Shown in pieces: positions 23,064 to 49,313 of a stretch of DNA of 64,000 nucleotides. The notes below the pieces were generated by a model. That model was given only the letters and a program-made list of their open reading frames with translations. It was not told where the DNA came from and did no database searches. Made by a program: the position numbers and the translations under genes. The first letter of the stretch is position 1. Each line of letters begins with the position of its first letter. The stretch comes from an uncultured Verrucomicrobiae bacterium (lineage in GTDB: Bacteria > Verrucomicrobiota > Verrucomicrobiia > Limisphaerales > Palsa-1400). The stretch lies in NCBI GenBank assembly GCA_963764165.1, contig CAVXRD010000001.1, positions 640,001 to 704,000 of the forward strand, written 5' to 3'.

Positions 23064-23081
23064 AGGTAGGGACGCCTCGCC
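23064..23081. repeat. Family-A REPIN, 5' half of left arm (interrupted by the IS)
   Basis: AGGTAGGGACGCCTCGCC immediately followed by the IS terminal repeat. Confidence 0.9.
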
Positions 23082-24764
23082 GAGACTGTCTCAAAACGTT
23101 TTAGTCTGGCCGATCTGGTTATATGGGCACCAATAGGGGCTGTGGAAACGGGTGTCAACTTTTAGTTGTCAGAGCGTGGCTGGCGTCAGCGATGACGCCA
23201 AGCTTCCCTTTCCCTCCTTTTTTAGGCCGCCATCGCCAAATTTCCTTCAACCGCGGCGGTTTTGACTTCCATTTTCGGCGTCTGGACCCGGGCCTGCCAC
23301 TTTTTATAGAGGATTCGCAGGTTCAAGGTGGCGCATAACAAGGCCCATTGGGCTTGCACGGCTTCCAGACCCCAAACTGTCCAACGCCGAAAGCCGTCGT
23401 GTTGCTTGAGCTGCCCAAACCGGCGTTCGATGATCTCTTTGCGCTTTCCATAAAGCGCGGCGGGTCCTGGCTCTTGCAGCCGGGCCCGCATGGCTTGCAC
23501 CAGCGTGGTGTGCGGCCACACTTCGACTTGCCGCCCTTTGGGATCGCGGCTGCAGAGGGCGCGCACGGGACAGTCTCGGTGATGGCAGCGGAAGCGCTCA
23601 ACGGTCTGGCCTTTCTTGGTGGTCTGGCCTTCGTGGTCCAGAAGGCGCTCTTGCGGGCAGGTGACGGTGTGGGCCGCCTCGTCATAATGAAAATGCTGCG
23701 TCGCGTAGGCGTTGTCGTGGGCTGGCTTGCCCTCCGCCGGCGGGGCCAGCACATTCATCTGCTGTTCCACGGCCGCTTTCAAGTCGGCCCCGCCCCCATA
23801 GCCGGCGTCGGCGGCGGTGAGGGTTGGAATGGCCGCCGGACCGAGGTTTTGCCTCGCTTCTTCAATCATGGGGACCAGCTGGCCGGCGTCGGTTTCCTGG
23901 CGGGTGGCTTGACAGGCGACCATGATGCCCTCCTGGCTGTCGGCCACCGCCTGGGCGTTGTAGGCAAAGCGGTTGGTGTCGCCGACTTTCATCCGGCGCG
24001 CCTCCGGTTCGGCTGGATGGTAATGGTGGCGCCCGTCGGCCTGCAGCTGGGCCAGGCCTTTTTTGATTTCCTCGCGCAGGGCCTGGCGCTGGGCCAACCC
24101 GGCGGGCAGCCGGCAGCCCGGTGCGCTGGAATCCTGGTTCTCCGCCACGACTTTGAGCTCGATTTCCTCCAAGGCGCCATCCAGCTGGGCCAGGAGCTTC
24201 TCCATGTAAACCTTGCTCCAGCCCTGCGGCCCGCTGCAGGCGGCTTGAATCTTGGTGCCGTCCAACGCTTGCAAGGCAAATCCCACCGCCCCGGTGCGGA
24301 GGGCCAGCTGCACGGTTTGCTTGAAAACCTGGCGCAGGGCCTTTTTGTTTCCGTCCCAGAACCGCCAGAGGCTGTTGTGGTCGGGGGCGTTGAGCCCCGT
24401 CAGCCACAGCAGCGAGACATGCTCCGTGCAGGCGGTTTCCAGCTTGCGGGTGGAGCGAATGCGGTGGAAATAACCGTAAAGCCAAATCTTGAGCAGGAGG
24501 CTGGGGGCATAGGGCGGACGGCCTTCGGCGGCGGCGGGAATGACAAACCCAAGCTGGGGCAGATCCAACTGGTCGACAAATTCGCGCAGGAAGCGGGCGG
24601 GATGGTCGGCGGACACCCAGTCCTCCAGGGCGGGCGGGAGGAGGAACTGCTGTCCGTAATCAGGGGCAATCGGTTGAGCCATATTTGTTGAACGGCATTG
24701 TCAACTAAAGGCTCACATATTGTCAAATACATTCCTCAAAAAACAGAAGTTTTGAGACAATCTC
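23082..24764 (-). mobile_element. IS1182-family insertion sequence, 1683 bp, 16-bp terminal inverted repeats, CGCC target duplication
   Basis: GAGACTGTCTCAAAAC / GTTTTGAGACAATCTC (15/16 match); CGCC at 23078-23081 and 24765-24768. Confidence 0.93.
23222..24682 (-). CDS. IS1182-family DDE transposase
   Basis: GRPPYAPSLLLKIWLYGY, ALDGTKIQA, YNAQAVAD, ADAGY, YGKRKEIIERRFGQLK. Confidence 0.93.
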   Translation of the reverse strand: MAQPIAPDYGQQFLLPPALEDWVSADHPARFLREFVDQLDLPQLGFVIPAAAEGRPPYAPSLLLKIWLYGYFHRIRSTRKLETACTEHVSLLWLTGLNAPDHNSLWRFWDGNKKALRQVFKQTVQLALRTGAVGFALQALDGTKIQAACSGPQGWSKVYMEKLLAQLDGALEEIELKVVAENQDSSAPGCRLPAGLAQRQALREEIKKGLAQLQADGRHHYHPAEPEARRMKVGDTNRFAYNAQAVADSQEGIMVACQATRQETDAGQLVPMIEEARQNLGPAAIPTLTAADAGYGGGADLKAAVEQQMNVLAPPAEGKPAHDNAYATQHFHYDEAAHTVTCPQERLLDHEGQTTKKGQTVERFRCHHRDCPVRALCSRDPKGRQVEVWPHTTLVQAMRARLQEPGPAALYGKRKEIIERRFGQLKQHDGFRRWTVWGLEAVQAQWALLCATLNLRILYKKWQARVQTPKMEVKTAAVEGNLAMAA

Positions 24765-24919
24765 CGCCGAGGCGTCCGAGGATGTGGCGGTTTGTGGGCG
24801 TCTAAATCCGCGCAGAGATCAGGGCGGCCCAAAAGACCTTCCTGCGAAGCCTTTAAAAAAAGAAGATCACGCTTCTAAACCGCAACATCCCCGGACGCCT
24901 CGGCGAGGCGTCCCTACCT
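24765..24919. repeat. Family-A REPIN, remainder after the IS
   Basis: CGCCGAGGCGTCCGAGGATGTGGCGGTTT ... AAACCGCAACATCCCCGGACGCCTCGGCGAGGCGTCCCTACCT. Confidence 0.9.
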
Positions 24920-46188: not shown

Positions 46189-47160
46189 TCATGCGCCGCA
46201 AAGCCTGTCAACCAAAAGGTTCTTAAAACCGTCCATGTTCGTCCAGGTGGCTGCCACGTTGATTTGCTTCGCCTGCGGGTCGATGACAGTCATGCCATCG
46301 TCCGTCACGCGGATGCCAAGGCGTTCCATCCGGCAAAAATCCCGCGCCACCGCCAGATAGACGGCAACCGTATCGAAGAGCGTGGTGGAGCCTTTCGATG
46401 AATCCATGTCTGCCTTTCCCGCGCTCCAAAGCCGGTAGTTCGCGATCACGCTTGCGGCGACAGGGTCGCGGGACTGGAGCAGGCGCTGATAACGCGGGCC
46501 GTCGAGCGAGATAATGCCGCAGGTGTCGAGCGGAGTGATCGTCATTTCCCAAGGCGCGGTGAAACATTCCCGGGCGGCGGCAACATCGGCCTTCACATTC
46601 CATTCCGCCCCGGGAATCTTGGAGCCGCCGTAGCCAAGCCGCACGCTGCCGTCCATGCCAACAATGCGGGCACGGGTGGCGATGCGAGGCTCCCGCTTCA
46701 GCGCGGCGGCGACATTGGCCATCGGGCCGATGGCGATCACGGTTACCGGTTCAGGCGAATTCATGATGACGTCGACAATGGCGCCGATGCCGTCCGCGTG
46801 AACCTTACCCGGATAAGCCTTCAGATCGTAATCGTTGACCCACTTCAGCAAATCTCCGGCGCCGCGCGGTTCGACATCCGGGCCAACCGCTATGGGGATA
46901 TTGCCATGACCGGTTGTTTGCAGAAATTTCGCCAGCAGCTTTGCGCGATAGTTCGGCTTGCCGTATTCCGTCGCCACAAGTTTCAAATTCAGCTCCGGGC
47001 ATTTGAGCAGGAAGCCGAGCGCCCATGTGTCGTCGATGTCGTCGCCGATATCCGTGGCAAGGATGACCGGCGTGGGGAGCCCCGACGGCTCGGCCAGGGC
47101 GCTAAGGCTGGCAAAGGCGAGTGTTGAGGTCTGAATAAAGGTGCGGCGATTGATTTTCAT
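46189..47160 (-). CDS. Nucleoside hydrolase-family protein with Tat signal
   Basis: NRRTFI; TDIGDDIDD, IGPMANV, AEWNV, TLFD. Confidence 0.85.
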   Translation of the reverse strand: MKINRRTFIQTSTLAFASLSALAEPSGLPTPVILATDIGDDIDDTWALGFLLKCPELNLKLVATEYGKPNYRAKLLAKFLQTTGHGNIPIAVGPDVEPRGAGDLLKWVNDYDLKAYPGKVHADGIGAIVDVIMNSPEPVTVIAIGPMANVAAALKREPRIATRARIVGMDGSVRLGYGGSKIPGAEWNVKADVAAARECFTAPWEMTITPLDTCGIISLDGPRYQRLLQSRDPVAASVIANYRLWSAGKADMDSSKGSTTLFDTVAVYLAVARDFCRMERLGIRVTDDGMTVIDPQAKQINVAATWTNMDGFKNLLVDRLCGA

Positions 47161-48665
47161 GCGGCGACTGACCGCCATTCAAGCACCAGGCAGCCACCGG
47201 CAACAAGCTCAATATCCAGTTCGTGAACTTGCCCGGCACCCCTCTCCTCGCTGGGCGGGGCGAGGGAATTGATGAGACGTGTTTCGGCCCTCGATCGCAG
47301 CAAATTGAAATGCGCCTCACGCGTTCGCCAACTGGAGCTGCCACCTGAGTAAATAGTGTTGACGCTGCTCGCCGGGGCCAGAAAGGGCAGCGTGAAAGCC
47401 TGCTTCTCTCTGGACAAATTTGTCACGACGAGATGCTCCAGCGCATTTCCGCCGCTCCATTTTACGGCGAAACAGGAATCAATTCCTGTTTCGCAAAACT
47501 CGGGAACTCCTTGTCCGATAAGCGTCTTGGACAGGCGCCGGATCAGATCGCGATAAAACGCCGCCATCTCCAAATCTTCCGTTTCCGGCCAATAGGAATT
47601 GAACTGCACTGGCGCGCGGTGCTTTCGTCCCGCCAATTGTCCGTCATGCAACAAACGCAGACCAGGTTGCGCGAGCAATAACACCGCCGCTGCCCGTCCC
47701 TCCTCCGATGTCAGCAGGGCAGCTATGGGCGCTTCGTCGTGATTCGCGAGAAAGCGCGCCGGACGAAAACTTTCCGCAACCTTGCGCACATGCTTTTGCA
47801 AGGCGCTGAATTTTCGCTCGACCAACTCGTCGAGAAATTTTTTGTCGTAGCAATAATTGAAGCCCAATTTTTCCAATCGCGGTTCGGTGTCCCAATAGGC
47901 CTCCGCGAGGAACAGAAAATCCGGCTGGCGTTGCCGAACTTCAGAGATGGCGTCCTCCCAGAATTCAGTCGAGGGCGTTTCCCCGGCGGCAGGAAAATCC
48001 GCCCATGTCTTGGCGAAAATGTCGTTCAGCAAGAGCATCGCCATGTCGCACCGAACGCCATCGCATTGCGCGGCGACGGATTGGAGAACATCCGTCATCG
48101 CCCGGCGGGTGGCCTCGTTTCGGTAATCCAACTGCGCTGTATCAATCCACGGCGGGAAGAATGGATCCTTTCCATGCGCGACCCAATGGGCGCCGAGGTG
48201 GAACGTCCCCGCCTTTTCGACAGGACTGCGTACGAACAATTCGCTTCGCTGCTCAAGCCAAGGATGATCGACGCCGAGGTGGTTCGGGACGAAATCGAGG
48301 ATCAATTGCAAGCCATGTCGATTTAGAAGGGACCGGAATTCGCGCAGTCCGCTCGCTCCGCCGAGCAATTCCGCGACGGAATATTCCGCAATGGCATAGG
48401 GCGAGGCAGCCAATCTTTGCGGGCCGTTTTCCCCGAAGGCGTCAATGCTCAACTTGCGGAAGCCTGGCTGGCTGCGGGCAATCTCCAAAGTTTTCGGACC
48501 CGTCGTCCAAACTCCCATTAGCCAAATGTGCGAAAAACCCAAATCCTTCCAATCGCGGACAATCGACTCAGGAACGCGATCCAGCGTGACCAAGTTTTGC
48601 GAGCCCCCAGCCAGCTCCCGCAGCCAACAGCGCGTGTTAATTTCCAAAACGAGCGGATGAGCCAT
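47157..48665 (-). CDS. Alpha-amylase family (GH13) glycoside hydrolase
   Basis: LDFVPNH, GVRCDMA, FLAEAY, FLANHDE. Confidence 0.88.
   Translation of the reverse strand: MAHPLVLEINTRCWLRELAGGSQNLVTLDRVPESIVRDWKDLGFSHIWLMGVWTTGPKTLEIARSQPGFRKLSIDAFGENGPQRLAASPYAIAEYSVAELLGGASGLREFRSLLNRHGLQLILDFVPNHLGVDHPWLEQRSELFVRSPVEKAGTFHLGAHWVAHGKDPFFPPWIDTAQLDYRNEATRRAMTDVLQSVAAQCDGVRCDMAMLLLNDIFAKTWADFPAAGETPSTEFWEDAISEVRQRQPDFLFLAEAYWDTEPRLEKLGFNYCYDKKFLDELVERKFSALQKHVRKVAESFRPARFLANHDEAPIAALLTSEEGRAAAVLLLAQPGLRLLHDGQLAGRKHRAPVQFNSYWPETEDLEMAAFYRDLIRRLSKTLIGQGVPEFCETGIDSCFAVKWSGGNALEHLVVTNLSREKQAFTLPFLAPASSVNTIYSGGSSSWRTREAHFNLLRSRAETRLINSLAPPSEERGAGQVHELDIELVAGGCLVLEWRSVAA
47239..47316 (-). repeat. 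Family-E dispersed repeat inside the GH13 CDS
   Basis: Reverse complement matches the blocks and spacing of 35400-35475. Confidence 0.65.
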
Positions 48666-48684
48666 TAATGCAAGTCTCCTCAAA

Positions 48685-48861
48685 AGGTAGACGCCTCACC
48701 GGGATTGTCTCAAAACTCCAAAATCCTCAAAGTGTGTCAATACCACGACTCTCTCATTTGCGATAGGGCGCATTTCTATTTTCGGCGAGGGTGTTTTTGT
48801 GGTGCTTTTTAAAGCCGCTTTTGAGTTTTGAGACACTCTCCACCGAGGCGTCCGGTTGCGT
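48685..48861. repeat. Family-A REP arm split by a MITE
   Basis: AGGTAGACGCCTCACC [MITE] CACCGAGGCGTCCGGTTGCGT. Confidence 0.85.
48701..48840. mobile_element. 140-bp MITE with IS1182-like ends and CACC target duplication
   Basis: GGGATTGTCTCAAAACTC / GAGTTTTGAGACACTCTC (16/18 match); CACC at 48697-48700 and 48841-48844; no ORF. Confidence 0.9.
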
Positions 48862-48911
48862 ATGAAAATGTTCGCGGCTTTCGGCGTAATTAACGTCCCG
48901 ACCCGGACCTC

Positions 48912-49313
48912 TTAGCTATTGAGCAGCTTCATCGCCTTTTTGGCGTCGGAAACGCGGAGAATGAGCAAGCCCTTCTTGGCATCCGGCGGCGTGGCGGAAT
49001 AGGCGTATTCGATGTTGACCTTGCCAGCGGCCAAGTGCTGCGCGACTTTTGCCAGCGAGCCCGGTTTGTTGTCGGCCGTGAGCATCAGCACGTCATCCTC
49101 CACCACCAGCGTCCCGTGCTCCTCAAAGACAAAGAGCGCCTTGACCGGATCGCTGACGACCATGCGCACGACGATGTGATCGACGGTGTCGCTGGTGGAG
49201 AGTGCGTAAATGTTGATCTTGGCCGCGCTGAGAGCCTCGCAGATTCGCGCGAGCATGCCCGGCCGATTCTCGAGGAAGAGAGCCAACTGCTTTGTTATTT
49301 GCATAATTTCCAT
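48912..49313 (-). CDS. Tandem ACT-domain protein
   Basis: FLENRPGMLA...INI and DNKPGSLA...VNIEYAY. Confidence 0.88.
   Translation of the reverse strand: MEIMQITKQLALFLENRPGMLARICEALSAAKINIYALSTSDTVDHIVVRMVVSDPVKALFVFEEHGTLVVEDDVLMLTADNKPGSLAKVAQHLAAGKVNIEYAYSATPPDAKKGLLILRVSDAKKAMKLLNS

Follow-up and report, generated by a model that had tools for sequence, protein, structure and literature searches.

In Pseudomonas putida KT2440, ISPpu9 inserts in REPs and is accompanied by a MITE, MITEPpu9 (ssr9) (PMC12288879). ISPpu9 belongs to IS110 and the pair has no terminal inverted repeats; the excerpts of that paper describe no target duplication and report 8 MITE copies in three strains. Other ISs that target REPs are ISRm22 (IS4), ISPsy8, IS1397, ISKpn1 (IS3), ISPa11 and IS621 (IS110) (PMC1525189, PMC3184786), and the excerpted text of PMC1525189, which covers REP-targeting ISs of five families, never names IS1182. 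Within the IS1182 family, the staphylococcal elements IS1272 and TnSha1 insert at palindromes, where the hairpin is deleted, no duplication is formed and no sequence consensus is described in the sections available (PMC5678879, PMC4923244). A duplication of the loop only is sketched as a possible pathway in PMC5678879, and in passages of both papers Siguier et al. are given as the source on IS1182 members that target palindromes. Regarding REPs themselves, a RAYT that acts on REPs with perfect stems and 3-nt loops was seen to bind a GCAG substrate and barely cleave it (extract of PMC8266576), and GTAG repeats have been reported in Verrucomicrobia (abridged text of PMC3733652); passages of PMC3281130 and PMC3184786 contained nothing decisive here. 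A literature search over titles and the starts of abstracts, outside ISfinder and subscription papers, returned no description of an IS1182 element with GTAG REPs as its target or with a discrimination of tag variants.

The sequence analysed here is a stretch of 64,000 nucleotides, hereafter the window, from a 7.0-Mb genome in 5 contigs with 57% G+C. The window carries a non-coding MITE of 140 bp (48701..48840, plus strand) with terminal inverted repeats of 17/16 bp, whose ends are GGGATTGTCTCAAAAC and GTTTTGAGACACTCTC. The target duplication CACC is present on the plus strand at 48697..48700 and 48841..48844, and the MITE splits a variant REP-A into a tag-proximal half (48686..48700, plus strand), with GTAG at 48687-48690, and a distal half (48841..48853, plus strand). 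A CACC duplication at the apex of a variant REP is what the original prediction had described. Compared with the REP-A family, this REP has lost 2 bp between the tag and the stem. Within the MITE family, the copy in the window has diverged most, with 9 differences from the majority sequence. One of these falls in each terminal repeat, and this copy may no longer be mobile.

The REP, the MITE and a decayed linker make up 246 bp (48666..48911, unstranded) located between an alpha-amylase-domain gene (47157-48665), whose start is likely the ATG at 48665, and an ACT-domain gene (48912-49313). In three of the five relatives tested (G001, G004 and G011) all 246 bp are missing at the orthologous junction and the two genes directly abut, indicating that the insert split a tightly coupled gene pair. 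With regard to the empty sites that the original prediction had proposed to look for, these three lack the whole insert, and no allele with the REP and without the MITE was found among the relatives tested. In the 4 genomes of the same genus, the MITE was absent and there was no empty REP at the window locus.

The window also contains an IS1182-family IS of 1683 bp (23082..24764, minus strand), inserted in a GTAG REP-A and flanked by CGCC duplications at 23078-23081 and 24765-24768. The GTAG-proximal REP-A half beside it (23066..23081, plus strand) has its GTAG at a distance of 16 nt from the end of the IS, and the doublet partner of the split REP is an intact empty GTAG REP-A at 24893..24917 (minus strand), one of 13 intact REP-A copies in the window. 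The duplications of the window MITE and of this IS both occupy positions 13-16 of the 25-nt REP, which agrees with the earlier claim that the two elements share one insertion register. The transposase of 486 aa (23222..24682, minus strand) scores 346.7 bits against NF033551, above the cut-off of 270, and contains DUF772 and DDE_Tnp_1_6; these features, together with inverted repeats around one ORF and a DDE fold, place the element in IS1182. The predicted structure of the transposase (pLDDT 79) is nearest to the Tn5 transposase (Z 15.1, rmsd 5.0, 279 aligned). A sequence search retrieved no solved relative of the protein, and the search by fold offered no clue to a target-reading surface.

BLAST detected 27 full and nearly identical copies of the IS in the genome. 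Among the 26 with both flanks, 19 are identical, and the diversity is 0.00035 per site. These copies carry the only kind of intact transposase of this type in the genome, which otherwise has one relic, a left end of about 300 bp at C1:1276500-1276790 that shows 80% identity, is frameshifted and lies in a GCAG-tagged REP. Of the 9 loci that encode transposases with at least 63% identity, 6 are labelled as Verrucomicrobia.

The same type of search revealed 22 full copies of the MITE, with a mean G+C of 39%. In the majority sequence, the terminal repeats of the MITE are identical to those of the IS over 17 bp on the left and 16 bp on the right, and the duplications are exact and of 4 bp in 19 copies, of 5 bp in one and with one mismatch in two. 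The element therefore has the traits of a bacterial MITE, being short and non-coding, with inverted repeats, dispersed copies, duplications and the ends of a resident autonomous IS. Outside the terminal repeats, BLAST with a word size of 4 gave only matches of up to 18 nt between the MITE and the IS (best E 0.094). These data bear out the original prediction of a multicopy non-autonomous element that has the ends and target of the IS and an interior that cannot be aligned with it. The alternative named there, a one-off internal deletion scar of the IS, was rejected on the basis of the 22 copies and an interior that does not derive from the IS. No match to the interior was found in the genome beyond the copies themselves, nor in 27 related-IS loci except for a MITE in L046, and no further paired elements with these ends were found in the genome.

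The interior is A+T-rich and partly conserved over 13 aligned sequences. We also considered that it could be an RNA gene: no Rfam family matched at threshold, the folding z values (-2.8 and -3.2) are mainly owed to the terminal repeats, and none of the 29 predicted pairs, 17 of which are the terminal repeats, showed a two-sided change among the 13 sequences. There is an outward TTGACA near the left end, and a promoter scan of two copies found no promoter. According to crude gene calls, the TTGACA points downstream in 7 of the 13 copies located between co-directional genes; this lack of orientation bias led us to discard a portable-promoter reading. TGTCAA/TTGACA motifs are also found inside both IS ends (24690-24730 and 23140-23175), as they are in the window MITE (48733-48739) and in several relatives, and are possible candidates for subterminal binding sites or -35 boxes.

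The MITE family comprises 13 haplotypes and has a diversity of 0.037 per site over its 21 copies of 140 bp. Compared with 0.00035 for the IS, this indicates that the MITEs predate the recent IS burst. Identical copies form groups of 4, 4, 2, 2 and 2 and suggest continued movement of the family. The MITE moves as a unit, since identical haplotypes are found in different REP types and in both orientations, and a spread of the MITE as REP cargo was rejected for the same reason. Judging from the ends, the target and the haplotypes, the MITE has very probably been moved in trans by the IS1182 transposase. We also considered that an earlier, dead IS1182 relative alone spread the MITE and that the present transposase does not move it. 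The roughly 100-fold greater diversity of the MITE, the persistence of the relic and the fact that the interior is common to MITEs of other genera and absent from this IS all point in that direction, and it was probably an earlier IS relative that first spread the MITE. As a complete explanation, however, this is very improbable: the MITE ends are closer to the present IS than to the relic, the register and the junction mismatches described below are common to MITE and IS, and there are groups of identical copies, even though identity over 140 bp dates poorly.

All 49 insertions (22 MITE and 27 IS) are flanked by REP halves and lie, in both orientations, at the apex of a GTAG-type hairpin. No MITE copy is thus found outside a REP, a location that the original prediction had named as evidence against it. 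One IS is at a contig edge with a single visible flank, leaving 48 insertions with both flanks, which fall in REP-A (43), in REP-B (4) or between one half of each (1). REP-A is GTAGGGACGCCTCGCCGAGGCGTCC, with 182 exact intact copies, and REP-B is GTAGGGCG..CGCCC; the two constitute 0.18% of the genome, so that the concentration of the insertions in REPs greatly exceeds chance. Allowing up to 2 mismatches, there are 410 intact REP-A cores, 276 of them with a neighbour within 140 bp. The left end of the element faces the tag in 16 of 26 IS and in 15 of 22 MITE insertions.

The duplications at the 48 sites are exact and of 4 bp in 37 cases, of 5 bp in one and imperfect in 10, including the hybrid site. 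Since 37 of the 48 insertions have exact 4-bp duplications and both arms are kept, a hairpin replacement of the IS1272 type was ruled out. REP targeting of the IS110 type, as in ISPpu9, was also dismissed, given the IS1182 transposase and the terminal inverted repeats. The review by Siguier et al. is said to mention that some palindrome-targeting IS1182 members duplicate the loop. The hybrid, an IS at C2:2992595, is placed between half a REP-A and half a REP-B, without a duplication, and is possibly a product of recombination between copies. Two REP doublets are doubly filled, with a MITE and an IS about 60-80 bp apart (C1:597575-599476 and C2:1391614-1393490), and the outermost ends of each pair might function together as a composite element.

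The REPs have their own transposase tier. A search with PF01797 gave 10 Y1 transposases, none flanked by REP-A, and a later motif scan gave two intact RAYT genes (C2:2170011-2170472 and C4:582541-583032), each bracketed by inverted GTAG REP-A copies and scoring 93.0 and 90.6 bits against NF047646, with a cut-off of 80. This arrangement identifies the REPs as a proper RAYT-associated family, with GTAG before a short palindrome, high copy number, doublets and inverted REPs around RAYT. The original prediction of three tiers, REP, IS and MITE, held for these layers and has to be extended by a fourth, with the two REP-flanked RAYT genes. Additional RAYT-like genes are located at C1:422344, flanked by a GTAGGGCGAGG-type REP, and at C1:294008, flanked by a different repeat family.

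Analysis of the sequences around the insertions revealed that the distance between GTAG and the end of the element is exactly 16 nt in 44 of the 48, and that the 4-bp duplication begins 12 nt after the G of GTAG. Of the remaining four, one has the tag at 17 nt, one has GCAG at 16 nt, and two, the window copy among them, have no correctly placed tag and still keep the register. Intact REP-A copies carry GTAG in 233 cases, GCAG in 113 and another sequence in 64 (n=410), GCAG thus making up 113 of the 346 tagged copies, while the 43 occupied ones carry 41 GTAG, no GCAG and 2 others (Fisher p = 5e-7; REP-A only, the REP-B, hybrid and contig-edge copies being omitted). Among copies with perfect stems, GTAG and GCAG are equally often inside long ORFs (43/182 and 13/56). 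The use of GCAG is not absent, as seen in one IS in a GCAG REP-B, in the relic and in 3 ends in other genomes.

An explanation without any reading of the tag is that the shape of the hairpin alone is recognised, and that GTAG is in excess owing to doublets that are young, intact or extruded more often, or to the loss of insertions from GCAG copies. It has a precedent in IS1272 and TnSha1, which in the same family target hairpins without a sequence consensus (PMC5678879, PMC4923244, in part), and GCAG copies are indeed more often imperfect, with exact stems in 56 of 113 compared with 182 of 233 for GTAG. Nevertheless, the bias persists among perfect stems, with 35 GTAG and no GCAG occupied against 182 and 56 intact (p 2e-4). 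Moreover, the genome has 818 strong hairpins, of which 463 are neither of the REP types nor GTAG-tagged, and none of the 49 insertions falls in these 463, which include a family of 92 perfect hairpins, CCACGCTCACGCGAGCGTGG. The position of the duplication also argues against shape alone, as it does not lie at the centre of REP-A and is in every case displaced towards the tagged arm, even when the central base differs. On the other side, the doublet partners of occupied REPs are themselves rich in GTAG (15 GTAG to 1 GCAG, with 28% GCAG expected; p 0.037), and this suggests that an effect of the locus, and not the direct reading of one base, may be involved.

The comparison with other genomes bears on the same question. 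Of 60 relatives, 2 have related MITEs of 147-149 bp, and both are members of the family outside the genus; the 4 genomes of the same genus have none. Among 300 genomes sampled from the order, 5 encode transposases that are 64-82% identical, and E 1e-50 is passed by 2590 of the 8000 proteins scored. At clade loci elsewhere (16 IS and 14 MITE, a set in which several assemblies join ends of different copies and some loci are close kin), a tag lies 15-17 nt away at 26 of 49 distinct ends, against a background of 88 in 127,382 positions. About half is the expected maximum, since only one side of each site is tagged. The 26 ends comprise 20 GTAG, 3 GCAG and 3 other sequences, and 18 have GTAG at exactly 16 nt. 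This constant distance over differing stems is not expected if shape alone is recognised. More in keeping with that explanation, at least 121 metagenome stretches have the same terminal core (119 readable, in many interior clusters), and among the matches listed many are at the apices of unrelated hairpins; 7 of those listed have the interior of the window MITE. Recognition of shape alone is, in our estimation, improbable, and the choice of site likely uses the sequence of the tag as well as the palindrome.

We also observed related elements in other settings. The metagenome MITEs (L078-L198) are 127-157 bp long, with a common terminal core and many unrelated interiors, some containing internal REP-like hairpins; some lie in GTAGGGGCG REPs one base further out and others in A/T tracts without duplication. 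The relatives L038 and L178 are in untagged hairpins. In G011 (L012:1047-1210) a related MITE and the left end of a related IS1182 element are separated by 9 bp, with a partial REP between them, and in G171 (C390) a distinct, shorter MITE of about 110 bp has the same terminal repeats in a genome with a related IS.

In all 10 imperfect duplications, it is the base touching the element that departs from the sequence of the REP family. The altered base is on the tag side in 9 cases (5 A, 4 G and no T) and on the far side in 1, a skew with p 0.035 given the detectable bases, which includes the hybrid and is weaker without it. The mismatches occur in both elements (8 IS and 2 MITE). Each altered base is found beside the same end of another copy, which fits the carry-over of a donor-flank base followed by segregation; we propose, tentatively, that the junction on the tag side now and then keeps one such base. 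The mismatches could also come from errors of assembly polishing, which may explain up to 4 cases of the G type and hardly the 5 of the A type, which are minority bases.

The polarity towards the tagged arm, in register and in junction mismatches (9 to 1, p 0.035), has a further possible source in RAYT. The MITE would still be moved by the IS1182 transposase, and REPs that are bound, nicked or unwound by RAYT would be chosen, the GTAG rule being that of RAYT; the IS1182 clade and its MITEs would then hijack a domesticated RAYT system by inserting into RAYT-bound or RAYT-cut REPs. Such a hijack would account for the GTAG rule, for the 12-nt measure from the tag and for the restriction of a donor-derived base to the junction on the tag side. 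It agrees with the two intact RAYT genes flanked by GTAG REP-A, with the presence of RAYT above the cut-off in all 5 genomes tested, each a carrier of the IS/MITE clade, and with the excerpted data of PMC8266576, where the T-to-C change avoided here gave the poorly cleaved GCAG substrate. We consider both this choice of REPs and the hijack as such unlikely. Insertions in REP-A and REP-B, which differ in their stems and share the GTAGGG start, are in one register; in the extracts seen, RAYT cuts CT or CA dinucleotides beside the REP and not the apex (PMC8266576), and the REP specificity of IS1397 and ISKpn1 is set by the transposase itself (PMC1525189).

The reading that we favour, with some confidence, is that the MITE is mobilised in trans and that the transposase itself reads the GTAG(GG) tag plus the adjoining hairpin without RAYT. 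RAYT would spread the REPs and so supply several hundred mostly intergenic safe sites for the IS. A Tn5-like DDE transpososome would cut across the apex with a 4-nt stagger, taking its register from the tagged arm. The MITE would contribute its ends only and compete for transposase and sites.

The choice of targets in IS1182 has been little studied, and the papers found, as far as their available sections go, give hairpin targeting by structure only. The 49 natural insertions, with the 410 unused look-alikes as a built-in control, provide a testable rule (tag, 12-nt distance, apex and 4-bp stagger) that recurs among relatives with different stems, and end-processing in the IS1182 family may have left its characteristic mark in the junction mismatches. 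GTAG has so far been known as a signal for another enzyme. If the transposase reads the tag, it would have come by convergence to use the same signal as an HUH enzyme to which it is unrelated, and would be a compact site-specific DDE integrase with a natural vector of 140 bp; if RAYT is needed, two transposase chemistries would be engaged in cross-talk, and this would give access to the cellular role of RAYT.

Compared with the described systems, the one reported here resembles ISPpu9/MITEPpu9 in having, within one genome, an IS at one REP position and a non-autonomous element with matching ends (PMC12288879, in part), and differs in its DDE IS1182 transposase, terminal repeats, 4-bp apex duplication, 22 copies and relatives in other genera. 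With MITEPye1/ISPye18 of Paracoccus yeei it shares IS1182-type repeats, 4-bp duplications and movement in trans, which was also inferred there; MITEPye1 has 1-3 copies per chromosome, and the extracts of PMC11578231 make no mention of REP targeting. IS1272 and TnSha1 share the IS1182 family and the palindromic targets (PMC5678879, PMC4923244, in part), whereas in the present system the apex undergoes duplication and the use of sites can be predicted from a sequence tag. As in the REP-targeting ISs, all copies are in REPs, and for ISRm22 and ISPsy8, too, the insertion point is the axis of symmetry and the duplications are short; in those systems, as excerpted, there is no discrimination of tag variants and no companion MITE (PMC1525189, PMC3184786). 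REP-A has the GTAG, perfect stem, 3-nt loop and doublets of the RAYT/TnpA-REP systems and flanks RAYT genes in inverted orientation, so that the REP tier shows no difference from them in the published portions available (PMC8266576, PMC3733652); beyond those systems, an unrelated DDE element obeys the same tag here. The original prediction of an undescribed system thus does not stand as worded, since REP/IS/MITE layering (PMC12288879), IS1182-type MITEs (PMC11578231) and hairpin targeting (PMC5678879, PMC4923244) have been published, according to the parts of these papers available. The layering is of a known kind, and the new parts are the clade-wide GTAG target rule and the junction signature.
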